Shown in pieces: positions 1-20,997 of a DNA stretch of 20,997 nt; positions within the stretch are counted from its first letter, which is position 1, and each line of letters begins with the position of its first letter. Source of the stretch: a virus (lineage: Duplodnaviria; Heunggongvirae; Uroviricota; Caudoviricetes); IMG/VR virus record IMGVR_UViG_2534681759_000007; one strand, 5' to 3'. Below the pieces are notes generated by a model. That model searched no databases. It was given only the letters and a program-made list of their open reading frames with translations, and had not been told where the DNA came from. The translations under genes and the position numbers were made by a program.

Positions 1-1164
1 TTACGCCTTCTTTATATCCTCCATAATTCCAGAGTGGGACATATTTGGGACATTATCACCAAAAATGTCGTCTATTTTCCTCGCATGCTCTGTCAAATGA
101 TTAGGCGCAAGGTGAGCATACCTACGAACCATTTCTATGGACTCCCATCCGCCCATTTCCTGAAGCACTGATAATGGGACGCCTGACTGAATCAGCCAGC
201 TTGCCCAGGTGTGTCTGAGGTCATGGAAACGGAAATCTTCAATTCCTGCACGACGACAAGCTGATAGCCATGATGTCTTGCTGTCGATGCGCATCTTCCT
301 GACCGCAGGCGTTGATGTTCCATCTGCTCGCTTAGCCGCCTTGGTATGTACAAACACCCATTTGTGATGCTTGCCTATTTGATCACGCAACACTTTACAG
401 GCGGTATCGTTCAGCGCCACACCAATGGCGCGGTTTGATTTGCTCTCTTCTGGATTCACCCAGGCAACTCGTCGCTGCATGTCGATTTGTTGCCATTCCA
501 GATTTATGATGTTCGACTTTCTCAGACCAGTTGCCAGCGCAAACTTGACGACAGATTTCAGTGGTTCGGGGCACTCATCAATAAGGCGTTTTGCTTCCTC
601 CTTTTCCAGCCATCTGACTCGCTTGTTTCTGACCGCTGGTATCTTGATGACAGGCGCTTTTTCCAGCCACTTCCAGTCGCGTTCTGCAGCACGGAGAATG
701 GCCTTTATCATGGCAAGATGCTTTGCCTTTGTCTGAGTTGATACTGGCTTTGGTTCATAAACAGGCGGTTCTTTACCTTTCCTGATGGCGGCCTGAACTT
801 TCTGTTTCCATATTTCTTTCGTCTTTCTGTTATGCATTCTGCTTACAGCAGAGTAAATCTTTGCCTCCGAGATATCTTTAAGCCTTATACCCTCAAAATG
901 TTCAAGCCAGAACTCAATCCGGCTTTTATCTGAATCGAGAGATTTTTTATCAGCTTTTTCCTCAAGCCATCTTAGGCAGGCCTCTTCAAAAGTGACATCA
1001 GGTAAATCCCCTAGCTTTTCTACTCGCCAGAGTTCTGCTTTTCGCTTGTCGTGCAACTCCTGAGCTTGCCGCTTGTCCTTTGTGCCAAGAGATTCCTTAA
1101 TTCGTTTCCCGCCCGGGAGCGAATACGAGGCATACCATATTTCATTTCTGCGGAAGAGTGACAT
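1..1164 (-). CDS. int: Phage integrase, tyrosine recombinase family
   Basis: 387-aa ORF with ATG at 1164 and stop at 1-3. C-terminal region [15 protein letters not shown]...VRRYAHL fits the R..H-x-x-R..Y catalytic signature of tyrosine recombinases. First gene at the left edge, as expected at a prophage end. Confidence 0.9.
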
Positions 1165-1391
1165 TTTCTTTCCTCTGTTATGCCATCACCCGCGCTCACC
1201 TGGACAGTATGCAGCGGAGACTGAAGCGCCGCAATGCAGGCTTGCCGTGTTGTGAGGTAAGGAGATTTTGGCTTGGTTGGATCTTTACGTGTTGCCTGTA
1301 GGCGGCCTGTTCGTATCCAGTTGGTGGCGGTTGGTCTGGATATCTTAAGAAACTGACAGGCCTCATCGAGTGTGAGGCTGTATGATTCCAT
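1020..1391 (-). CDS. Excisionase-like DNA-binding protein (AlpA/Xis-type HTH); 3' extent uncertain
   Basis: ATG at 1391 preceded by a GAGGT Shine-Dalgarno-like sequence; N-terminus [31 protein letters not shown] resembles excisionase-type HTH proteins. The open frame overlaps the start of int by about 145 nt, which is unusually long. Confidence 0.55.
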
Positions 1392-1641
1392 GGTTACCTC
1401 TGCTTTTTGAACGCATGTCACGTAACTTCTTAATGTGTTCTGCCGTTTCGATCTCTTCTGCTATCCGATCTGCATCAGCTTTATTCACAGGTTCAAAGTC
1501 ATGATTAAAGCGGAACATGCTGGCGATACATGTTCTGCCTTTTCGGATGTAGTGAACTTTGTTGTGGGTAGAACGCAGGATTTTGCAGGGAGTGCCGTGG
1601 TGGTCGACGTACCAGGTGTTAGGAAAAATGATTCTGAACAT
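1363..1641 (-). CDS. Hypothetical small phage protein
   Basis: 92-aa ORF, ATG at 1641 with GAGGTG 8 nt upstream; co-oriented with int/xis; no family recognised. Confidence 0.45.
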   Translation of the reverse strand: MFRIIFPNTWYVDHHGTPCKILRSTHNKVHYIRKGRTCIASMFRFNHDFEPVNKADADRIAEEIETAEHIKKLRDMRSKSRGNHGIIQPHTR

Positions 1642-1688
1642 TTTTACACCTCAGTTGGACGATGTTGAAATTTGCTGCTTTGAGGCCA

Positions 1689-1907
1689 TCACAGTCCCCA
1701 TTGTTTGTTCTTAAGTTCGATCTCCTCCTGGCAACTTGCACAAGTCCGACAACCCTGAACAGCCAGGCGTCTTCGCTCATCTATCGGATCGCCACACTCA
1801 CAACAATGAGTTGCGGATACAGTCTGGTAGTTCAGACGACGCATTTTTATTGCTGTATTGCGCTGTAATTCTTCGATTTCTGATGCTGAATCAATGATGT
1901 CTGCCAT
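1689..1907 (-). CDS. TraR/DksA-family C4 zinc-finger protein
   Basis: 72-aa ORF with CCECGDPIDERRRLAVQGCRTCASC, i.e. two C-x2-C pairs typical of phage-encoded TraR/DksA-like zinc fingers. Confidence 0.75.
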   Translation of the reverse strand: MADIIDSASEIEELQRNTAIKMRRLNYQTVSATHCCECGDPIDERRRLAVQGCRTCASCQEEIELKNKQWGL

Positions 1908-2005
1908 CTTCCATTAATCCCTGAATTGTTGGTTAATACGCTTGAGGATGAATGCGAACAATAAAAAAGGAGCCTGTAGCTCCCTGATGATTTTGCTTTT
2001 CATGT

Positions 2006-2320
2006 TCACCGTTCCTTAAAGACGCCGTTTAACATGCCGATCGCCAGGCTTAAATGAGTCGGTGTGAATCCCATCAGCGTTACCGTTTCGCGGTGCTTCT
2101 TTAGTACGCTACGGCAAATGTCATCGACGTTTTTATCCGGAAACTGCTGTCTGGCTTTTTTGATTTCAGAATTAGCCTGACGGGCAATGCTGCGAAGGGC
2201 GTTTTCCTGCTGAGGTGTCATTGAACAAGTCCCATGTCGGCAAGCATAAGCACACAGAATATGAAGCCCGCTGCCAGAAAAATGCATTCCGTGGTTGTCA
2301 TGCAGCCTCCCGACGGGCAA
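2006..2320 (-). CDS. Hypothetical phage protein (start uncertain)
   Basis: 104-codon open frame beginning with TTG at 2320 (AAGGA upstream); in-frame ATGs at 2287 and 2221 are alternative starts. Co-directional with neighbours, no family recognised. Confidence 0.4.
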   Translation of the reverse strand: MPVGRLHDNHGMHFSGSGLHILCAYACRHGTCSMTPQQENALRSIARQANSEIKKARQQFPDKNVDDICRSVLKKHRETVTLMGFTPTHLSLAIGMLNGVFKER

Positions 2321-2855
2321 GAATCCTTGAGCCGAACGCCATCAACTCTCCACGATCAACAGTCGTAAAGTGGCAGTGTGTACGGGGGTATGGGTGCCAG
2401 ATAATGAGCATCGAGCCTTTATTATTTCCACTGACGGGTTTCTCAGTGAGTGGGTTAATAAATGCCAGTCGTCCTGCCGTGATGAATCTGACCTCACTGG
2501 CGGTTTGTATCGCTTCATGAAACCATCCGACAGATGTGTCAGCAGGCAATAACATTACACATCCCACACTACTGAATTTGTTTTCAGTGGCTGCCTTTTT
2601 CACAAAAGGGGAAATATTGCTGTATGGTGGATTCAACCAGACATAACCAGAGGCATATCCCATTGCTTCAGGCCATGAAGTGGTTAATGTGTTCTGCTCC
2701 TGTGAGATAAAAAGCCGACATAGTCGGTTTTTTTCGCTGGCGGCAGCATCAAGTTGAAAAACGAACTCTGCATTAAGCGCAGCAAAAATCTCTGGTGGTG
2801 TGCGCCAGCTGTCGCGATGTTCGGCAGGAGTATTGCTTCCGGTGAAATCAGTCAT
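2298..2855 (-). CDS. Phage DNA N6-adenine methyltransferase (Dam-like)
   Basis: 185-aa ORF containing the NPPY motif (YVWLNPPYSN) typical of amino-methyltransferase motif IV; ATG at 2855. Confidence 0.75.
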   Translation of the reverse strand: MTDFTGSNTPAEHRDSWRTPPEIFAALNAEFVFQLDAAASEKNRLCRLFISQEQNTLTTSWPEAMGYASGYVWLNPPYSNISPFVKKAATENKFSSVGCVMLLPADTSVGWFHEAIQTASEVRFITAGRLAFINPLTEKPVSGNNKGSMLIIWHPYPRTHCHFTTVDRGELMAFGSRILARREAA

Positions 2856-3009
2856 ACAGCCCCCGTTTATTATTTATCTCCTCAGCCAGCCGCTGTGCTT
2901 TCAGGGGATTTCGGATAACAGAAAGGCCGGGAAATACCCAGCCTCGCTTTGTAACGGAGTAGACGAAAGTGATCGTGCCTACCCGGATATTATCGTGAGG
3001 ATGCTTCAT
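2848..3009 (-). CDS. Small hypothetical protein (53 aa) coupled between exo and the methyltransferase
   Basis: My own translation of the minus strand: [53 protein letters not shown]. Its ATG overlaps the exo stop and its TGA overlaps the methyltransferase ATG (ATGACTGA arrangement). Too short to appear in the supplied ORF track. Confidence 0.3.
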
Positions 3010-3686
3010 CGCCATTGCTCCCCAAATGCAAAACCAATTTCAGCCAGTGCCTCGTCCATTTTTTCGATGAACTCCGGCACCATCTCGTCAAAACTCGCCA
3101 TGTACTTTTCATCCCGCTCAACCACGACATAATGCAGGCCTTCACGCTTCATACGCGGGTCATAGTTGGCAAAGTACCAGGCATCTTTTCGCGTCACCCA
3201 CATGCTGTACTGCACCTGGGCCATGTAAGCCGACTTTATGGCCTCGAAACCACCGAGCCGGAACTTCATGAAATCCCGGGAGGTAAACGGGCATTTCAGC
3301 TCAAGGCCATTGCCGTCACTGCATAAACCATCGGGAGAGCAGGCGGTGCGCATACTTTCGTCGCGATAGATGATCGGGGATTCAATAACATTTACGCCGG
3401 AAGTGAACTCAAACAGGGTTCTGGCGTCGTTCTCGTACTGTTTTCCCCAGGCCAGCGCTTTAGCGTTAACTTCCGGAGCCACACCGGTGCAAACCTCAGC
3501 CAGCAGGGTGTGGAAGTAGGACATTTTCATGTCAGGCCACTTCTTTCCTGATCGGGGCTTTGCTATCACGTTGTGAACTTCTGAAGCGGTGATGACGCCG
3601 AGCCGTAATTTGTGCCATGCATCATCCCCCTGTTCGACAGCTCTCACGTCGATCCCGGTACGCTGCAGGATAATGTCCGGTGTCAT
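3006..3686 (-). CDS. exo: Lambda exonuclease (Red alpha)
   Basis: 226-aa ORF that I recognise as near-identical to phage lambda Exo ([40 protein letters not shown]...); overlaps bet stop as in lambda. Confidence 0.95.
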
Positions 3687-4468
3687 GCTGCCACCTTCTG
3701 CTCAGTGGCTTTCTGTTTCAGGAATCCAAGAGCTTTCACTGCTTCGGCCTGTGTCAGTTCTGACGATGCGCGAATGTCGCGGCGAAATATCTGGGAACAG
3801 AGCGGCAATAAGTCGTCATCCCATGTTTTATCCAGGGCAATCAGCAGAGTGTTAATCTCCTGCATGGTTTCATCGTTAACCGGAGTGATGTCGCGTTCCG
3901 GCTGACGTTCTGCAGTGTATGCGGTATTTTCGACAATGCGCTCGGCTTCATCCTTGTCATAGATACCAGCAAATCCGAAGGCGAGACGGGCACACTGAAT
4001 CATGGCTTTATGCCGTAACATCCGTTTGGGATGCGACTGCCACGGCCCCGTGATTTCTCTGCCTTCGCGGGTTTTGAATGGTTCGCGGCGGCATTCATCC
4101 ATCCACTCGGTAACGCAGATCGGATGATTGCGGTCTTTGCGGTAAATCCGGCATGTGCAGGATTCGTTGTCCTGTTCAAAGTCCATGCCGTCAAACTGCT
4201 GGTTTTCGTTGATGATGCGGGACCAGCCATCAACGCCCACCACCGGAACGATGCCGTTCTGCTTATCGGGGAAGGCGTAAATTTCTTTCGTCCACGGATT
4301 AAGGCCGTACTGGTTGGCGACGATCAACAATGCGATGAACTGCGCATCGCTGGCATCACCTTTAAATGCCGTCTGGCGAAGAGTGGTGATCAGTTCCTGT
4401 GGGTCGACAGAATCCATGCCGACACGTTCAGCCAGCTTCCCAGCCAGCGTTGCGAGTGCAGTACTCAT
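3683..4468 (-). CDS. bet: Lambda Bet (Red beta single-strand annealing protein)
   Basis: 261-aa ORF recognised as near-identical to lambda Bet ([66 protein letters not shown]...). Confidence 0.95.
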
Positions 4469-4473
4469 TCGTT

Positions 4474-4770
4474 TTATACCTCTGAATCAATATCAACCTG
4501 GTGGTGAGCAATGGTTTCAACCATGTACTGGATGTGTTCTGCCATGCGCTCCTGAAACTCAACATCGTCATCAAACGCACGGGTAATGGCTTTTTTGCTG
4601 GCCCCGTGGCGTTGCAAATGATCGATGCATAGCGATTCAAACAGGTGCTGGGGCAGGCCTTTTTCCATGTCGTCTGCCAGTTCTGCCTCTTTCTCTTCAC
4701 GGGCGATCTGCTGGTAGTGACGCGCCCAGCTCTGAGCCTCAAGACGATCCTGAATGTAATAAGCGTTCAT
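4474..4770 (-). CDS. gam: Lambda Gam, short (98-aa) form, RecBCD inhibitor
   Basis: 98-aa ORF recognised as near-identical to lambda GamS ([21 protein letters not shown]...VDIDSEV). The upstream in-frame extension that gives GamL in lambda is not conserved here. Confidence 0.95.
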
Positions 4771-4845
4771 GGCTGAACTCCTGAAAATGGCTGTGAAAAA
4801 ATCGCCCGCGGAATGCCAGGCTGATTCGGAAAACAGGAAAGGGGA

Positions 4846-4911
4846 TTAGTGATTCAGACCGTTGCCGCGTCCGTCGAGAAAAACTTCCACGAGCAAGTCA
4901 CGGGTATAAGT
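4846..4911 (-). pseudogene. kil: 3' remnant of kil homologue, separated from its 5' part by the IS100 insertion
   Basis: Joining 6866-7095 to 4846-4911 across one copy of the TAAGT duplication restores a continuous frame ending ...IERTYTRDLLVEVFLDGRGNGLNH-stop. The stop (cac taa) sits at the position I remember for the lambda kil stop relative to gam, about 75 nt upstream of the gam ATG. Confidence 0.55.
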
Positions 4912-4918
4912 TGTCAAT

Positions 4919-6865
<1,947 letters not shown>

Positions 6866-7095
6866 TAAGTGCGCTCAATGCCGCGATGCAGATAAAGTCG
6901 TCCGCGTAAATTAGCTGATGCAGTCCAGGTACCATCTTTGCGTTTGACCAGCATTCCTGGCATGACCGCACCGCGATTAACGGTCTGCGTTCCGTAATGT
7001 TGATGAACCATAAAAACTCCTGCCCGTAAGCTGGGCTGCTGAACATATAAAGACTTCTGCGCGTATTCAGGCGGTGGATGGCCGCCGGTTGTCAT
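6866..7095 (-). pseudogene. kil: 5' part of kil homologue interrupted by IS100 (true start uncertain, possibly an internal Met)
   Basis: The open frame from 7095 runs into the IS100 right end at 6865, where the translation switches to IS-derived sequence. Internal Met codons at about 6963 and 6954 would give a reconstituted product of about 50 aa, similar in size to lambda Kil. Confidence 0.55.
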
Positions 7096-7264
7096 AACTA
7101 AGCCGCCTCGTTGAAGCGACTAAGGTATGAAATGTTGAGTTGATTTCAGCTGGTCACACCGACGTTCACGCGTCCGTTTCATCCCTCGCACTCCCCGAAG
7201 CCTGCTGAAATTCAAGCTGCGGATCTAAGCGGTCATCGCAACGGTGAATCAGGTAGTTGCCGTA

Positions 7265-7360
7265 TCGTTGTGTTGTTGCGATGAACTTATTTAAAACTAT
7301 AGTTGTTTTATCGTCAACAACAAAAGTTGTTTTATTGGTTGTTTTAGATATAACTGGTTG
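7265..7360. promoter_or_regulatory. Putative OL/pL operator-promoter region (GTTGTT/AACAAC dyads)
   Basis: Clustered dyad-symmetric sites, e.g. AACAACAAAAGTTGTT (7316-7331) and TTGTTTTATCGTCAACAA (7303-7320), sharing half-sites with the cI-cro intergenic region. Position between the rex-slot gene and the leftward early operon matches lambda OL. Confidence 0.5.
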
Positions 7361-7488
7361 TATTTAGGATGGATTTATTTTGTGACTTGCATCGCACAGC
7401 GATAACTGAAGCGAGGTCGTGGTGGTTTTTTGAACGGTTTGTGTGATGAGGGGAGGCAAAAGAAAACCCGGCACGACGGCCGGGGAAA

Positions 7489-8352
7489 TCATTTCGCATC
7501 TACAATAAATAACCTGTTTATCTGGCCTTTTTTAACAGTAGCCTTTGCGGTTATAGTGAATACTGCAGATGGATCACCTTTGGTTGATATATATGCACTA
7601 AGAGCTCTAATATACGGGTTATTCTTCTTTCCTGCAGCTGGATCGCTAATTTCAGCAGTGATTCTCTTTTTTGAGTCATCACCATCTAAAATTATTTTAG
7701 CTGTCATATTTTGTGCATCAAATTCTGTAAGAAAAGCACGATACTCACGAAGACCGAGAACTTCATCATCATCAAGCCTATCAATTTCAGCTTTATCTCT
7801 CTCGTTAACTTTTAGAAGGCAGCCGTCAACATTTGTTGCAACACTTATCTGATCGCAAGTATTACCAATAGGTGATACTGCCTGCCTTACAGAGGGGCGA
7901 AGCTCTACAGCCATTCGGTCAATCAAAGAGATCAACTTATCAATGGTTCCAGCATCCTTGTTTCCTAGTGCCTCTATGGCCTTTTCAAGTGACTGCTGCA
8001 AAGCTTTCATTTCATCTTTCTTGTTAGAATTTCTCGCAAAAATATATTGTAGTATTGCGCCAAGTATAGTTGCGGCGATCCCCGAGAACAACTGGTTCTG
8101 AGTGGCGAAGTTAAGAACTGCTTCAAGAGTAAAGCAGTTAGCTTTTGCTTCGCGTGCGTAAACCTTAACTTCCTGATAATTAATGTATTTACTATATTTT
8201 TGTGTAACAGAGAAAGAAGCTGCTGTTGAGAGAACTTTAGAAAAACCCTTTAGGGATTCTCCTAGGCAGTTCAAATCTATTTCATGATTTAAAGCATCTT
8301 TTCCGTCATACCTAAGAGAGATTTTTATATCCTGTAAAGCGTCACAATCCAT
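7489..8352 (-). CDS. Hypothetical protein in the rexAB-equivalent slot downstream of cI; candidate superinfection-exclusion/abortive-infection protein
   Basis: 287-aa ORF, ATG at 8352, 66 nt after the cI stop and co-oriented with it; visibly AT-rich relative to flanking phage genes; one central hydrophobic segment ([18 protein letters not shown]); no family recognised. Confidence 0.6.
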
Positions 8353-8418
8353 AAATCGCTCTCGTCTAATTCTAATTAAATTTACTATCCCCTAAACGAC
8401 TCATCAGCACAGTACTGA

Positions 8419-9108
8419 TTATCCATGTTTCCTGTACGTCTGGGGCATGCTCCCAATAACCTTACCGAAGATGAACACCCGGTTCATCTCGTCTTTCTCG
8501 ATCGGGTCCCACGGTGAGTAGCTCTTGTTATCAGAGATAACCAGCAGCTTATCCTTCATCATTTGCAGGCGCTTTACATGGGCTGTGTCGTCGTACAGAA
8601 ACGCATAGATACCATCACCGTCGAAAGATTTAACCGTGATATCAACGAACAGCAGATCACCTGGTTCGATCGTTCCTGACATGCTGTCACCACGCACGTT
8701 AATGATGCGGATATTTTCCGCCTTCCTACCATCGAACATGTGACGAGCATCGTCAAACGAGTACTCAACCGAGCGTAGAACTTCTACAAACTCACGGTTG
8801 ATGACTCCCGGCCCAGCACTGACTTCTATATCAAGAACGTCAATCTTGAAGTATTTGGAATGGCTGACAGTTGATTGTATTGGTTGCACTGTACTGTCTG
8901 ACATATTTCCAACGCCAGAAGATAACCATTCTGCGCGCACACCCAAAGCGTTCGCGATCTCCACGATTTTAGTTGTTTGATTAGCTTTCCCTGTTTCGAT
9001 TTTCTGAATAGCAGCCTGGCTAACCCCGACCAAATCCCCAAGCGCCTTTTGTGTAAGGCCTCGCGCTAATCTGGCTTCTTTAAGTCTTTCTGAGAGTGTT
9101 GTTTTCAT
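8419..9108 (-). CDS. cI: CI-like prophage repressor (N-terminal HTH plus C-terminal S24 LexA-like peptidase domain)
   Basis: Start taken at MKTTLSERLKEARLARGLTQKALGDLVGVSQAAIQKIE (ATG 9108), an XRE-type HTH. C-terminal GDSMSGTIEPGD and HVKRL supply the Ser/Lys dyad of autocleaving repressors. Divergent from cro across an operator-containing spacer. Confidence 0.85.
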   Translation of the reverse strand: MKTTLSERLKEARLARGLTQKALGDLVGVSQAAIQKIETGKANQTTKIVEIANALGVRAEWLSSGVGNMSDSTVQPIQSTVSHSKYFKIDVLDIEVSAGPGVINREFVEVLRSVEYSFDDARHMFDGRKAENIRIINVRGDSMSGTIEPGDLLFVDITVKSFDGDGIYAFLYDDTAHVKRLQMMKDKLLVISDNKSYSPWDPIEKDEMNRVFIFGKVIGSMPQTYRKHG

Positions 9109-9114
9109 AGTCCA

Positions 9115-9180
9115 AATGTACAACCAAGGTTTTATTCCATCAAACGAAAATGGTTGTTGACTAAAAACAACCATAGTTTT
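9115..9180. promoter_or_regulatory. Putative OR operator / pRM-pR region
   Basis: Perfect inverted repeat TGGTTGTT-N7-AACAACCA at 9151-9173 plus additional GGTTGT half-sites in the 104-bp cI-cro spacer. Confidence 0.55.
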
Positions 9181-9212
9181 AATCTTGATTCAAATTAACC
9201 ACGGAGGTTGTT

Positions 9213-9443
9213 ATGAACCCAGCTATCAAAACAGCGATCAATATCGTTGGTTCACAAAAGAAACTGGGCGCTGCTTGCGAAGTTTCACAGCAGGCCGTCT
9301 ATAAGTGGCTTCACAACAAAGCAAAGGTATCCCCTGAACATGTCGGCAGCATTGTTACGGCTACTGGTGGAGTAGTGAAGGCATACCAGATTCGCCCGGA
9401 TCTTCCGAAGTTGTTTCCACACACCGAAAAGAACGCAGCTTAA
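9213..9443 (+). CDS. cro: Cro-like repressor (YdaS-type HTH)
   Basis: 76-aa ORF with GGAGG Shine-Dalgarno sequence, divergent from cI; motif KKLGAACEVSQQAVYKWL is a Cro/YdaS-type HTH. Confidence 0.8.
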   Translation: MNPAIKTAINIVGSQKKLGAACEVSQQAVYKWLHNKAKVSPEHVGSIVTATGGVVKAYQIRPDLPKLFPHTEKNAA

Positions 9444-12132: not shown

Positions 12133-13326
12133 TTATTCAATTAACGGTACTTGTTTGTTGCAGAATACTAATATTGCATCTTGAGTAAGTTTTTTATGCA
12201 TATGCTTTAGCGGCTCAATGTTAGTCTCGTAACCGAAAGTAGCGAAAAGAGTTGGTTCTATAATGAAATTTTCTTCATAAGCTTTTAGATCAAATGCTCT
12301 CTTTGCAATTAATCTAACTGCTTTCTTTCTAATGCGTGAATTATATCTATTCTCTATGCTAAGTTTAGCCATGTTTTCATCGATGTTGTTTTTTTGTTTT
12401 TTTAGTATAATTTGAATGTGATCATCATCAATTTGGCCATCTCTATATATATAATCAATGTCATAATTAAAATCAAAAAGCTGAGTGTCATTTACACCTT
12501 CAAGAAAAGGATTTGAAAATGGGCTCATGATCGGATCGAGTGATTTTTTATAAGTACTATTGCATTTAGTGCAGCTAGGAATTAAGTTAAATAAACTAAA
12601 GGAGATCAACGGATATTTGTACTTAGGTATGAAATGATCAAATGCTGGCCTGTAGCTAGTACCTGTATGGTCTTCTACTTGTTCAATTTCTTCACTGTTG
12701 CAATATGGGCATATGCTAATGTCTAAAAAACTGTTCAATTGATACGCTGTTTCTCTATCAATAAGTGAGTATTTAAATATTTCAGAAATATTTTTAACCC
12801 ATGATGGAAATAACTTAATGGTATTTTCCTTTAAAGGACCACCATTCTTGATACTTATAAGATTAAGAATCTTATCTCTTAAACTAGATAATTTTTGTGG
12901 TGAGAAATGTGTATTTAATATATCCTCAAGTATTAGGCTTTGTGTAGTTTGAGAGAAAGATGTGATTATTTTGATGGCATGTGCTAGTTCATTATAAACT
13001 ATTTTTTTGTTTTCTTTTGTTTTTAAAGGTAATTGTAGGTTTGTTAATGGTTGTAAATTTAAGTGCCTTAAAAAATAATCAGGAGAATAGTACTCACACA
13101 CAATTGGGTGTTTGTTGTATATTTTGATGATTATATTTTTTAATCGTTTGGGTTTTGAAAAAACTAATTTTCTGATAGTTTTTTTGTTGATTGTATTTAG
13201 AAACTCTACTTCATCGGGAGTAATGTTCAGTAACTTCCTCTGCTTCACGCGTTTATTAACTTTGCTTACTATTTTAGAAAAGGATATTTTTACATCAACA
13301 TTGAAGTCTTTGTTTATTTTTATCAT
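12133..13326 (-). CDS. HNH-family nuclease (PtuB-like), 397 aa, second gene of the AT-rich two-gene island
   Basis: HNH/His-Me finger signature at residues ~206-256 (nt ~12559-12711): CPYC...EDH...FDHFIPK...NLIPSCTKCN. Protein is Lys/Asn/Ile-rich and the DNA is strongly AT-rich; start is 9 nt downstream of the ATPase stop. Confidence 0.8.
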   Translation of the reverse strand: MIKINKDFNVDVKISFSKIVSKVNKRVKQRKLLNITPDEVEFLNTINKKTIRKLVFSKPKRLKNIIIKIYNKHPIVCEYYSPDYFLRHLNLQPLTNLQLPLKTKENKKIVYNELAHAIKIITSFSQTTQSLILEDILNTHFSPQKLSSLRDKILNLISIKNGGPLKENTIKLFPSWVKNISEIFKYSLIDRETAYQLNSFLDISICPYCNSEEIEQVEDHTGTSYRPAFDHFIPKYKYPLISFSLFNLIPSCTKCNSTYKKSLDPIMSPFSNPFLEGVNDTQLFDFNYDIDYIYRDGQIDDDHIQIILKKQKNNIDENMAKLSIENRYNSRIRKKAVRLIAKRAFDLKAYEENFIIEPTLFATFGYETNIEPLKHMHKKLTQDAILVFCNKQVPLIE

Positions 13327-13335
13327 TTTTTTTAC

Positions 13336-15123
13336 TCATTTCTCAAAAGAATCTGTTTTATCATTGTTTTTGTTTAACTTCAGATCAATAAGATTTATGA
13401 GAAGTTTATTTTTAATTTGTGATAGTATGGTTTTTTGATGTTTATTTAAATTACCGTCATCTGAGTTTTTTATTATTGAGTTTAGATAATTATGTGCGTG
13501 CTGTCCTATTGTAGCATCAATAAAAAAACCATTTATATATAATTCTGATATGGTTGCTCCGAAACCAAACTCTACTTTCTTAGTATAGGTTCCTTGATTA
13601 TGATCTCTTTCAAGATATATTATATCTGATGGCAAAAAATCACTTGCGAGTATAGGGGAGTGAGTTGTAAATACTAATTGAATATTTTTACTTTGTTTAT
13701 ATCTTAATGTTAAATCTATAATTTCTGAAAAAATAACTCGTTGCCATTCAGGGTGTAGATATAAATCACACTCATCTAATAATATTATAATATTTTTGCT
13801 GTTGCTATGTTCTATAGAATCATAAAGTTGATTGAAAAGGTTTAATTTTGCAAACTCTCCTGAACTAAGTGAATCCCAACCATACTTAAATCGCGATGAT
13901 ACGCCATTTGGTAACCTATCAACTAATCTTATTAACTCCATAATCTGCTTTGGTTCTTCAACTGTGAAAGATAAACTATCAACTGGGTCTCTTGCTGTGT
14001 TTTCTAATATATCAGCTATATTACCTATAATGTCGGAGATATGTTCAGATAACATTTCTATTTTTGACTGAAATTTAACATTAACGTTAAATTCATCTAA
14101 AGTCTCTAATATAGTTTTTGCTGGATCTTTTTCTTCAAGATACGCGCGACACAAGCAAAATAAATAAACAGTCTCACATATGTCTTTAGGGATTTTTGAT
14201 GTCTTGAGTAAATGCCATGTTATTGCAGGCAAAAGCATCAAGTAAATTATTTTGTGATATGAAAAGGTTGCGAGGAAATTTAATGATCTTTCTTTGTTAA
14301 AAATAATGCTAATAATAAAATCTTCATCGTAATCTATCCCATGATTGAGTATATCCACAAGTGAAATACCTAAAGAATCTAAATCACGTTCAATATATCT
14401 AGGGAGTTTATTGTTTTTAATTCTATCATTCAACGTATCAAAAAAGTATTCAATAGCTCCAAAAAGTCCTTTGTCACCAATATCATTGTTTTTTATAATA
14501 GAATTTATTTTATATACTGGTGAGTTTTCTATTTCAAATTGAAATTTAGTATTAAGTCTTGATAAATTGTCTTTAGCCCATGAACTGTGGTCTGAAAATG
14601 AAATTAATTGCTTGAGTAATTTCTTATTGCGTGTTTTACTGCCTTGCAAAAAATATGACAGTGATAAATCTTTAGAAATCGAATCGTTTTTTTTCTTTTT
14701 TTGTCCAACTAACATACTTTTGAGGTCGATTGTGTTATTTATCTTTATTAGATTGATTTTGTTTCTTCTAAAAAAATGTTCATTATTATCAATTAGTTCC
14801 GTTTGCATTTTGGATAATATTACAGGAGGTTTGCAATTGCTTGTGATAATTATAAGTTTATCATTTTCATTCCAGATGCTATAACCGCTACCTTCAAAAT
14901 CGTAAATAAAGCTACTAATGAAATCTAAAATTGATGACTTTCCAACACCATTTTTCCCTAAAATTAATGTACAGGGAATATTGCTATAATAGTCACGACT
15001 TAAATCTTTCTTAGCAATTGTAAGGACGTTACCTTTATGGCTAAAGGTAAATTTACTTGAGGTGGGGAGGGACAGCTTATTTAAACCTTTATAATTGTGG
15101 ATATAAGTGTATATTAGTTCCAT
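13336..15123 (-). CDS. ABC/SMC-like ATPase (AAA_15/AAA_21-type, PtuA-like), 595 aa, first gene of the two-gene island
   Basis: Walker A GKNGVGKSS (nt ~14935-14961), signature-like LSSGE (13855-13869), Walker B IIILLDECD (~13765-13791) and H-loop FTTHSP (~13654-13671), with a ~350-aa helical insert between Walker A and the signature. Strongly AT-rich. Confidence 0.8.
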   Translation of the reverse strand: MELIYTYIHNYKGLNKLSLPTSSKFTFSHKGNVLTIAKKDLSRDYYSNIPCTLILGKNGVGKSSILDFISSFIYDFEGSGYSIWNENDKLIIITSNCKPPVILSKMQTELIDNNEHFFRRNKINLIKINNTIDLKSMLVGQKKKKNDSISKDLSLSYFLQGSKTRNKKLLKQLISFSDHSSWAKDNLSRLNTKFQFEIENSPVYKINSIIKNNDIGDKGLFGAIEYFFDTLNDRIKNNKLPRYIERDLDSLGISLVDILNHGIDYDEDFIISIIFNKERSLNFLATFSYHKIIYLMLLPAITWHLLKTSKIPKDICETVYLFCLCRAYLEEKDPAKTILETLDEFNVNVKFQSKIEMLSEHISDIIGNIADILENTARDPVDSLSFTVEEPKQIMELIRLVDRLPNGVSSRFKYGWDSLSSGEFAKLNLFNQLYDSIEHSNSKNIIILLDECDLYLHPEWQRVIFSEIIDLTLRYKQSKNIQLVFTTHSPILASDFLPSDIIYLERDHNQGTYTKKVEFGFGATISELYINGFFIDATIGQHAHNYLNSIIKNSDDGNLNKHQKTILSQIKNKLLINLIDLKLNKNNDKTDSFEK

Positions 15124-17708: not shown

Positions 17709-18806
17709 TTAGAACTGGTAAACCAGACCTACAGCAACGATGTCATCAGTGCTTACACCGAGTGCTTTAGTGAAGTCATTTTTGTCAAGCAGGTTGATTT
17801 TGTAATCAACGAAAGTTGACATATTTTTGTTGAAGTAATAGGTGGCACCTACATCAACATATTTGACTAAGTCCTGATCGCCCCATACTCCAAGATCCTT
17901 ACCTTTAGATTGCAGGTAAGCAACGGACGGACGCAGACCGAAATCGAACTGATATTGTGCAACAGCTTCGAAGTTTTGAGCTTTATTAGCAACGAAGTGA
18001 TCAGCAAATACAGTCATATTCTGGGTTTCAGAATAGGTAGTGGCCAGGTAAATGTTGTTAGCGTCATATTTCAGACCTGCGGCCCAAACTTCTGCATTTT
18101 TACCGGAAGCAAATACTTCAGGAAGAACTTTCCCTGCATTAACTTGAGTGTCGGTACGATCAGATTTCGCATAAGTTGCACCGATACCGAATCCTTCGTA
18201 TTCATAGGTAGCAGAGAAACCGAAGCCATCACCGTTACCTTCGGTGTAGTTATCGAAATCGCTACGATCGTTTTTGCCTTGGTACTGAGCAGCAAAGTTC
18301 AGACCATCAACCAGGCCAAAGAAGTCGTTGTTACGATAGGTTGCAACACCAGTGGTGCGACCAGTCATGAACACATCTGTTTGGGTCCAGGTATCGCCAC
18401 CGAATTCTGGCAGAACGTCAGTCCACGCACCGATGTCGTATGCTACACCGTAGTTACGGCCGTAATCGATGGAGCCGTAGTCACCGAATTTCAGGCCAGC
18501 GAAGGCAAGACGGGTTTTATCTTTGGAGGAACCTTGAGATTCAGCGCGGTTGCCTTTGAATTCATATTCCCACTGACCGAAACCAGTCAGTTGATCGTTG
18601 ATTTGGGTTTCACCTTTGAAGCCAAGACGGGCATAAGTAGTATCACCATCATCTGCATCATTAGAGGAGAAGTAGTGCTTAGCATTAACTTTCCCGTACA
18701 GATCCAGCTTGTTACTGTCTTTATTATAAATTTCAGCTGCCTGAGCAGACATCGCCATCAGTACTGATGCAGCTACAGCAGAAATTGCCACTGTTAATTT
18801 TTTCAT
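17709..18806 (-). CDS. nmpC: Outer-membrane general porin NmpC/OmpD-like, apparently intact
   Basis: Start at [23 protein letters not shown] (signal peptide) followed by [17 protein letters not shown]... and C-terminal ...VGLVYQF, i.e. hallmark porin N- and C-termini. Encoded antisense between Q and the lysis cassette. Confidence 0.9.
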
Positions 18807-19233
18807 CGTGAGCCCTTTTTTTGAACTATTATTAAAAAATGATGTCACTGCGCGATAAATATTCATCTAATCAATATGATTATTTCAAGATGTAAGTTTT
18901 GGTTTCTCGTTTGATTTGTGAAGTAGATCTCTATTTTTATCTGAACTTTTTTCTATCGAATCCTATTCATGGCTCTTGGCTGAATAAAAATAAATCTATT
19001 AGCCAATTTATATTAACGGTTGTTATTTATAAGTGCTCTATGATTTGAAGGTTCAATTTAAATCGGCTAAAAATAACACTGGAAATTATTTGTTGGTTAT
19101 TTGTTGAGATTTGCTTATGTATTTGTAGTGGTGTTTTCAATACTCGGTAGCATTCTCGCAAATATCATTTAGTGGTTTACGTACGTAAAAAATTGGTTAT
19201 GCTGTTAAGAGTGGTTACTTCGTCACACAGCTT

Positions 19234-19378: not shown

Positions 19379-19594
19379 ATGAAATCCATGGATAAGTTAA
19401 CAACGGGTGTCGCCTATGGCACCTCAGCAGGTAGTGCCGGTTACTGGTTTTTACAGCTGCTCGATAAAGTCACGCCCTCACAGTGGGCAGCAATAGGTGT
19501 GCTGGGTAGCCTGGTATTTGGCCTGCTGACGTACCTGACAAACCTTTATTTCAAGATTAAAGAAGATAAGCGCAAGGCTGCGAGAGGTGAATAA
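19379..19594 (+). CDS. essD: Phage-21-type pinholin (S21-like) with dual-start motif
   Basis: 71-aa [29 protein letters not shown]... with two hydrophobic segments and a charged C-terminal tail; Met1/Met4 give the antiholin/holin dual start described for S21-type pinholins. Confidence 0.85.
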
Positions 19595-20091
19595 TGCCTC
19601 CATTATTACGAAAAGCCGTTGCTGCTGCTATTGGTGGCGGAGCAATTGCTATAGCATCAGTGTTAATCACTGGCCCAAGTGGTAACGATGGTCTGGAAGG
19701 TGTCAGCTACATACCATACAAAGATATTGTTGGTGTATGGACTGTATGTCACGGGCATACAGGAAAAGACATCATGCTCGGTAAAACGTATACCAAAGCA
19801 GAATGCAAAGCACTCTTGAATAAAGACCTTGCCACTGTCGCCAGACAAATTAACCCGTACATCGAAGTCGATATACCGGAAACAACGCGCGGCGCTCTTT
19901 ACTCATTCGTTTACAACGTGGGTGCTGGCAATTTCAGAACATCGACGCTTCTTCGCAAAATAAACCAGGGCGATATCAAAGGCGCATGTGATCAGCTACG
20001 TCGCTGGACATATGCTGGCGGTAAGCAATGGAAAGGTCTCATGACTCGTCGTGAGATTGAGCGTGAAATCTGTTTGTGGGGTCAGCAATGA
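19594..20091 (+). CDS. rrrD: SAR endolysin (lysozyme, T4-lysozyme-like fold, phage 21 R-like)
   Basis: 165-aa ORF with a Gly/Ala-rich N-terminal signal-anchor-release segment ([20 protein letters not shown]) followed by a lysozyme domain; start overlaps the holin stop (TAATG). Confidence 0.88.
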
Positions 20092-20186
20092 ACAGAGTAA
20101 CCGCGATTATCTCCGCTCTGGTTATCTGCATCATCGTCGGCCTGTCATGGGCTGTTAATCATTACCGTGATAACGCCATTACCTAC
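20088..20186 (+). pseudogene. Rz spanin gene truncated after ~33 codons by IS66-family insertion
   Basis: ATG overlapping the endolysin stop (ATGA); N-terminus [33 protein letters not shown] is a typical Rz signal-anchor. The frame then enters the IS end at 20187 and stops after 17 non-native codons. Confidence 0.65.
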
Positions 20187-20271
20187 GTAAGCGCATCATT
20201 TAAACCGTCTTTCGCCTCCCTTTCCTGTTTCCGATACTAATGTCCATTTTCGCAGTAAAAGGACATTTAAG

Positions 20272-20868
20272 ATGAATGCACGAAAGGCGGTACTGGCAGA
20301 TAACCCGGAATTGATCCTGCGTGTGCTACAGCTGAGATTTGACGAGTCACTGTCGTACCCGCGCATTTCTGCGCAGACCGGTGTCAGCAAAACCGCCATT
20401 TTTTCTCTGGTGAGGCGATTTCACCAGATATTCGCTGACTGGCCTCTTTCCGGTGAATATTCCTGCATGCAACTGGCCCGGGCTCTTTTCCCTGGGCGAT
20501 ATCCTTCAGCCCCGACAGTGACTCAGCCTGTGAAAACAGAGAAAATCCGCCGGAACCGATTTTCACCGGAGTTTAAATGGAGGCTTGTTCAGCAAACTCT
20601 TTTACCCGGTGCCTGTGTCGCACAAATAGCTCGCGAGAACGGAATCAACGATAACCTGCTCTTTAACTGGCGGCATCTCTGGCGTAACGGCGGCCTGCAG
20701 CCGCCCGGCGAACATGAAACATCGCTACTTCCCGTGACGTTAACGCCGGAGCCGGATAATAAAATCCCGGCACCAGTGCAAGACTACCTAGAACAGAATA
20801 AATACACTGCCAGACAGTCTGTGCTGCGAGCTGGTTCTGCCGGCCGGAACTCTCAGGCTGAAAGGTGA
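20272..20868 (+). CDS. IS66-family accessory protein (orf1/TnpA-like) with an N-terminal extension; 3' end possibly frameshifted
   Basis: 198-aa ORF; segment RRNRFSPEFKWRLVQQTLLPGACVAQIARENGINDNLLFNWRHLWRNG is the HTH typical of IS66 orf1 proteins. A different frame (20792-20926) encodes an ...LVLPAGTLRLKGELTPALLQTLIREMKGSSH tail that ends in the TGATG junction. Confidence 0.6.
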   Translation: MNARKAVLADNPELILRVLQLRFDESLSYPRISAQTGVSKTAIFSLVRRFHQIFADWPLSGEYSCMQLARALFPGRYPSAPTVTQPVKTEKIRRNRFSPEFKWRLVQQTLLPGACVAQIARENGINDNLLFNWRHLWRNGGLQPPGEHETSLLPVTLTPEPDNKIPAPVQDYLEQNKYTARQSVLRAGSAGRNSQAER

Positions 20869-20925
20869 ACTGACACCGGCGTTATTACAGACACTTATCC
20901 GCGAAATGAAAGGGAGCAGCCACTG

Positions 20926-20997
20926 ATGATATATCTCTCCCTGCCGGTTCGCGTATCTGGCTGGTTGCCGGTATCACCGATATGCGAAATGGCTTTA
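20926..20997 (+). CDS. Start of IS66-family orf2 (TnpB-like), partial and possibly frameshifted at codons 3-4
   Basis: ATG at 20926 in the TGATG overlap typical of IS66 orf1/orf2 junctions. A TnpB-like peptide ISLPAGSRIWLVAGITDMRNGF is encoded in a frame offset from this ATG. Confidence 0.35.
   Translation, partial: MIYLSLPVRVSGWLPVSPICEMAL

Follow-up and report, generated by a model that had tools for sequence, protein, structure and literature searches.

The Rz lysis gene of a prophage was found to be interrupted by an IS679-type element of the IS66 family near the right end of the window, i.e., the whole 20,997-nt stretch of DNA analyzed here. The window reaches to within 2 nt of the terminus of draft contig AQFA01000027.1 (GCA_000355255.2, 57,924 bp). 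The Rz gene is native up to position 20186 and is joined at 20187 to the left end of the element, of which the reading frames of tnpA and tnpB are broken by six extra bases. We consider it quite probable that this situation arose by transposition of an IS679-type element into codon 34 of Rz, with the six extra bases being most likely errors in the contig consensus. The evidence for the truncation, for the identity of the element, and for the nature of the extra bases is given below, together with the other origins that were considered for the junction.

Truncation of the Rz gene

The lysis cassette opens with an essD-type holin gene (19379-19594, plus strand, 71 aa), followed by an rrrD-type endolysin gene (19594-20091, plus strand, 165 aa), which overlaps the start of Rz by 4 nt. 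Both genes are complete ORFs; they are annotated as essD and rrrD, respectively, in the matching region of related prophages, with Pfam matches PF04971 and PF00959 on record, and they also match the upstream genes of the DLP12-type cassette.

The Rz ATG is located at 20088, and translation showed that the native part of the gene comprises exactly 33 codons (99 nt; 20088-20186, plus strand), encoding an N-terminal hydrophobic segment. These codons are followed by 17 IS-encoded codons and by a stop codon at 20238-20240, resulting in a fusion ORF, Rz' (20088-20240, plus strand), with a product of 50 aa, versus 153 aa for the intact protein. When the window was compared with 5,426 complete E. coli genomes by BLAST, its prophage part could be aligned only up to 20186, and phage Rz genes ceased to match at the same base. 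Likewise, pairwise alignment with intact rzpD showed identity through ...CATTACCTAC and no similarity beyond. The first 33 codons are those of intact rzpD (WP_001348166.1) of the DLP12 rzpD/rzoD pair, the counterpart of Rz-Rz1 in phage 21 and lambda, from which the gene in the window differs in being cut at codon 34. The first-pass annotation had described an Rz frame that is native for about 33 codons and then truncated; comparison with intact rzpD and with phage Rz genes bears this out and places the break between 20186 and 20187.

Intact RzpD (153 aa) matched Pfam PF03245 over residues 29-153 (183 bits), and no Pfam match was found for the 50-aa Rz' product. Members of the Rz i-spanin family combine the PF03245 (Phage_lysis) domain, a membrane anchor, a periplasmic coiled-coil and an embedded Rz1 gene; residues 1-33 alone remain here, and the truncated Rz is a disrupted member of this family. 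In intact rzpD, Rz1 is encoded in the +1 frame by nt 221-403 of Rz. As Rz1 starts at nt 221, it would be located past the inserted element.

The junction was found in the source contig alone. The exact 50-aa Rz' protein and the exact 198-aa tnpA ORF described below are each on record on one contig only, AQFA01000027.1. None of the 5,426 complete E. coli genomes spanned the Rz-IS junction, and no independent assembly was found with either the same junction or the frameshifted tnpA ORF. The IS insertion in Rz is private to this strain.

Identity of the inserted element

The IS matches begin at 20187. In two reference copies, the flanking 8-bp target duplications mark the corresponding position as the first one of the element. 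The 811 nt starting at this position (20187-20997, plus strand) matched IS66-family elements in 2,141 of the 5,426 complete E. coli genomes, the best matches being annotated as tnpA, tnpB, and tnpC. The copy from E. coli 90-9280, which was used as a reference, splits the Ag43 adhesin gene (ag43) and extends from GTAAGCGCATC... to ...GAGCCGCTTAC over 2,704 bp, with an 8-bp duplication, ACAGGAAC. Alignment to this copy (L001:3001-3805) showed that the window contains the left 805 reference nt, represented here by 811 nt.

The left end at 20187 reads GTAAGCGCATC..., as in the complete reference copies. The motif GTAAGCG at this position had been taken for an IS66-family terminus, and it is indeed identical to the left end of complete, duplication-bounded copies. 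In the left terminal inverted repeat, GTAAGCGCATCATTTAAACCGTCTT (20187-20211, plus strand), 17 of the 25 positions, including the first seven (GTAAGCG), are identical to the reverse complement of the reference right end. The inverted repeats of the reference copies are themselves imperfect, with 17 matching positions out of 25 and the first 7 identical.

In the intact reference organization, tnpA (216 aa) ends in a TGA that overlaps the ATG of tnpB (115 aa), forming the sequence TGATG, and tnpB is separated by a 19-nt spacer from tnpC (523 aa). All three genes are intact in the 90-9280 copy, with tnpA at 3086-3736 and tnpB at 3736-4083. The tnpA ORF of the window scored 260.9 bits against the NCBIfam model NF038385 (IS66 accessory TnpA), versus 284.7 bits for the intact protein and a cut-off of 150. 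The family models for the other two proteins were run on the reference copy only. In this copy, TnpB matched NF033819 and PF05717, and TnpC matched NF033517, PF03050, PF13005, PF13007, and PF13817, with scores clearly exceeding the cut-offs of the IS66 models; in the window's copy, tnpC is located outside the contig.

Copies of the element with 100% identity were found in the chromosomes and plasmids of ETEC-2264, 90-9280, TW10828, and LR882978/9, and copies with 98.5% identity are annotated by RefSeq as 'IS66-like element IS679 family transposase'. The reference copies that are identical to the part present in the window share a length of 2,704 bp, 25-bp imperfect inverted repeats starting with GTAAGCG, 8-bp duplications, and the TGATG overlap. 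The length, the 8-bp duplication, and the TGATG coupling presumably correspond to those of IS679, an element that was reportedly described from plasmid pB171 of EPEC. Judged by its sequence, the element belongs to the IS66 family and to the IS679 type, and is already known. The window differs from the IS679-type reference organization in that it contains the first 805 nt only and in that tnpA and tnpB are broken by +4 and +2 bases, respectively.

A further IS679-like copy, bounded by an 8-bp duplication (GATGCTAA), was observed in TW10828 (NZ_CP127262.1; L004:3692-6395). In that copy, the tnpA stop codon is TAA (TAATG) instead of TGA (TGATG).

Prophage context and IS activity

The window is a DLP12/phage-21-type lambdoid prophage at a tRNA-Arg site in an ETEC-lineage E. 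coli. The prophage backbone was 99.98% identical to that of ETEC-2264 over 18.2 kb, and the prophages of 90-9280 and LR882978 matched equally well by BLAST. Full-length ORFs were observed here for int (387 aa), an S24-type repressor, O/P-type replication genes, rusA, a Q-type antiterminator, and the holin and endolysin genes.

A second IS, IS100 (IS21 family, with istA and istB; 1,954 bp), is located in kil near codon 47 (4912-6865, minus strand). This insertion had been proposed earlier and is confirmed; it is flanked by a 5-bp target duplication, TAAGT, at 4907-4911 and 6866-6870. In ETEC-2264, IS100 is located within int (L006:1773-3726), and in TW10828 it is also located within int, but at another site in the gene and with its orientation reversed (L011:1390-3320). 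A single IS100 copy of the same prophage was therefore observed at three sites in three strains, in kil here and in int twice.

Moreover, rzpD is annotated as intact in ETEC-2264, 90-9280, and TW10828, and kil likewise in ETEC-2264 and TW10828. In the first-pass annotation, the two IS hits had been considered consistent with a domesticated or decaying prophage. This view was unsupported or overstated: key genes are full-length, and rzpD, as well as kil in two strains, is intact in near-identical relatives, in which the IS are found elsewhere. As the IS sites differ between near-identical strains, they point to recent IS activity in one lineage, and not to long-term decay of the prophage. The IS hits are recent and strain-private, in a lineage in which IS100 and IS679-type elements are active.

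Other features of the window were also observed. Two minus-strand genes (12133-15123) form an inserted block that separates the replication genes from the nin region. One of them encodes an AAA_15/AAA_21 ATPase of 595 aa, and the other a 397-aa protein, for which no Pfam match is on record; the layout of this block resembles that of an accessory cargo module, which may be of the defense type. The 397-aa protein is encoded by the ORF at 12133-13326, beside the AAA-family ATPase gene (13336-15123), and corresponds to a 322-aa protein annotated in ETEC-2264. This ORF contains a T-run at 13179 with seven T here versus six in ETEC-2264, a difference which may reflect a homopolymer error in one of the assemblies or a phase-variable gene. 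In addition, a gene annotated 'porin' (17709-18866, minus strand; 365-385 aa, Porin_1) was found between the Q-type antiterminator and holin genes, at the moron position held by nmpC in DLP12-type prophages.

Frame breaks in tnpA and tnpB

When the IS part of the window was aligned with the 90-9280 copy, all of the 805 aligned bases were identical (805/805), and the window contained six extra bases. Four of these are single-base insertions located within 17 positions of tnpA (A 20781, C 20784, A 20790, and A 20797; 20781-20797, plus strand), with a net frame shift of +1. They shift tnpA after residue 170, resulting in a 198-aa ORF (20272-20868, plus strand) in which 170 native residues are followed by an out-of-frame stretch. 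The true C-terminus of tnpA (INTLPDSLCC...MKGSSH*; 20798-20926, plus strand), with its TGA at 20924-20926, and the TGATG overlap (20924-20928) are left in the +1 frame.

The two other bases, AT, are located at 20929-20930, their placement being ambiguous within the ATATAT run at 20929-20934. The start of tnpB (20926-20997, plus strand), whose ATG overlaps the TGA of tnpA in TGATG, reads ATGATATAT here versus ATGATATCT in the intact copy, and the frame is shifted after codon 2. The two extra bases after the ATG of tnpB therefore leave the peptide ISLPAGSRIW... offset by two bases from its start codon. Read with these frame breaks, TnpA would be missing 46 residues at its C-terminus, and TnpB could not be read past codon 2.

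These breaks had been anticipated by the first-pass annotation, which had noticed that an orf1-like ORF ended in one frame with its C-terminus and the TGATG junction in another, and that the tnpB-like peptide was offset as if two extra bases were present. Alignment with the intact copy traced the former to the four insertions at 20781-20797, and the latter proved exact, with AT at 20929-20930. The arrangement of orf1 and orf2 in the window therefore deviates by +4 and +2, at the places proposed, from the intact organization, in which reference copies exhibit the TGA/ATG overlap.

Origin of the six extra bases

Contig AQFA01000027.1 ends 813 nt into a multicopy repeat, and the six extra bases are all located in its last 218 nt, where they represent five indel events at 69-218 nt from the contig end. 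Between the window and the ETEC-2264 prophage, IS100 excluded, only two substitutions and one change in T-run length were found in 18,232 nt. From the divergence of the window elsewhere, 0.036 events were expected in 217 nt, versus five indel events observed (Poisson P about 5e-10). The indel cluster is not due to chance.

The extra bases were found in none of the sequences to which the window was compared. They were absent, by alignment, from five reference variants sharing 91-100% identity. For the last 298 nt of the window, no full-length match exceeded 98.0% identity, the value obtained for copies lacking all six bases, at any of 14,749 places in the 5,426 complete E. coli genomes or of 2,426 places on plasmids. 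Moreover, a 30-mer spanning the cluster at 20781-20797 and a 30-mer containing the extra AT of tnpB each had no exact match in genome_contigs or in metagenome_contigs, the BLAST of E. coli genomes and plasmids serving as a control for these scans.

On this circumstantial evidence, the six extra bases are probably consensus errors at the low-support end of a draft contig terminated by a repeat, which is the likeliest of the explanations considered. An error in the consensus is favored over decay because the extra bases are confined to the contig end within a repeat, the rest of the IS part is identical at 805 of 805 bases, and the changes were absent from all other copies in the collections searched. 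In addition, there has been hardly any time for divergence in a strain-private copy that shows no other difference from its siblings, and five insertions with zero substitutions in 150 nt are not what would be expected from mutation. A single error model does not account for all of the changes, however: C 20784 and A 20790 are not homopolymer-length changes, and one simple error model is therefore insufficient. The mixing of reads from paralogues was also considered and was rejected as a full explanation, since the variants at 96%, 95%, 94%, and 91% identity all lack the extra bases and all variants agree at the second indel. If the extra bases are artefacts, the real Rz-linked copy would read GTGCAGATACCTGAACAGAT and ATGATATCTC, and it would probably be intact and autonomous, like its identical siblings.

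The opposite possibility is that the six bases are real, in which case the Rz-linked copy would be a pseudogenized, non-autonomous IS679-type element, movable only with proteins supplied by intact copies. The deposited sequence does read in this way, the closest genomes carry several intact copies able to act in trans, by which a truly mutated copy could still be mobilized, and mutated ORFs are said to occur in many members of the IS66 family. We nevertheless consider this possibility unlikely, given that it would require five independent insertions without any substitution in 150 nt of an otherwise identical, apparently recent copy (P about 5e-10), that these insertions all fall in the terminal 218 nt of a repeat-terminated contig, and that the extra bases were found nowhere else in the collections searched. 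In a more specific form, real extra bases could represent a burst of insertions in a freshly transposed IS679-type copy, caused for example by error-prone repair synthesis during or after transposition, which would also leave the copy non-autonomous and dependent on its siblings; this seems quite unlikely. The earlier suggestion that the IS66 copy itself may be non-autonomous thus loses its footing, as the breaks on which it was based lie within 218 nt of a contig end in a repeat, in a copy that is otherwise identical, at 805 of 805 bases, to the intact element of the lineage.

Probable course of the insertion

According to the explanation that we favor, a 2,704-bp IS679-type element carrying tnpA, tnpB, and tnpC would have transposed into codon 34 of Rz (rzpD), the gene of the inner-membrane spanin. 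The left terminus of the IS is joined exactly to Rz codon 34 (20186/20187), and the IS reads in the direction of the late operon. Based on the 8-bp duplications of the reference copies, the 8 bp TTACCTAC (20179-20186) would be expected to be duplicated at the right junction. The right end of the IS (...GGCGAGCCGCTTAC) would be located on another contig, where a simple insertion would continue as TTACCTACAAAGCCCAGCGC, carrying the TTACCTAC duplication. With the right junction located beyond the contig, a simple insertion is what we infer.

Rz' retains only the N-terminal 33 residues and has lost the periplasmic domain. The spanin step, i.e., disruption of the outer membrane, would consequently be lost, with the holin and endolysin steps left intact. 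Loss of spanin function is suggested by the absence of the periplasmic domain from Rz' and by the displacement of Rz1, which would be separated from the upstream genes by 2.7 kb. In lambda, lysis without spanins fails at its final step, chiefly when shear is low or the concentration of divalent cations is high.

The junction could also have been formed by an IS-mediated adjacent deletion or rearrangement, for example if an IS had been inserted downstream and the intervening DNA up to Rz had then been deleted. A precedent for the position of such a copy is found in TW10828, in which the same prophage carries the IS679-like copy mentioned above in the same orientation and with the same gene organization, at a distance of 2.26 kb downstream, where it interrupts the gene of the terminase large subunit (terL); moreover, with the right end of the window's copy outside the contig, no target duplication can be demonstrated. 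However, the TW10828 copy is of a different subtype, with a left end reading GTAACCGTCTC... versus GTAAGCGCATC... and 26 mismatches in 815 nt, so that an adjacent deletion starting from a terminase copy like that of TW10828 was excluded as the source of this junction. Furthermore, the subtype present elsewhere in the closest genomes is the one to which the copy in the window is identical, and rzpD is intact in ETEC-2264. In 90-9280, which is among the three genomes matching the prophage most closely, neither rzpD nor the terminase large-subunit gene is interrupted, and the 9 kb past the lysis genes contain no IS. An adjacent deletion thus appears very improbable. It is scarcely credible that the junction is a chimeric misassembly and that Rz is in fact free of IS: the contig is indeed terminated by a repeat, with a consensus that looks poor toward the end, but unique prophage sequence continues up to 20186 and the very first base of the IS follows at 20187, a precision that would not be expected of a chance chimera.

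Significance

The finding is an ordinary one: the element is known, and its new insertion site is trivial. Such members of the IS66 family are common in E. coli and insertions into prophage genes are routine, so that its biological weight is small. Frame breaks in the last 200 nt or so of a repeat-terminated draft contig should not be taken as pseudogenization. Since copies of IS100 and of IS679-type elements are found at differing sites of the same prophage across strains of this ETEC lineage, these insertions could be used to distinguish strains on a fine scale. Provided that the insertion is real, which appears to be the case, the strain would carry a prophage without spanin function.
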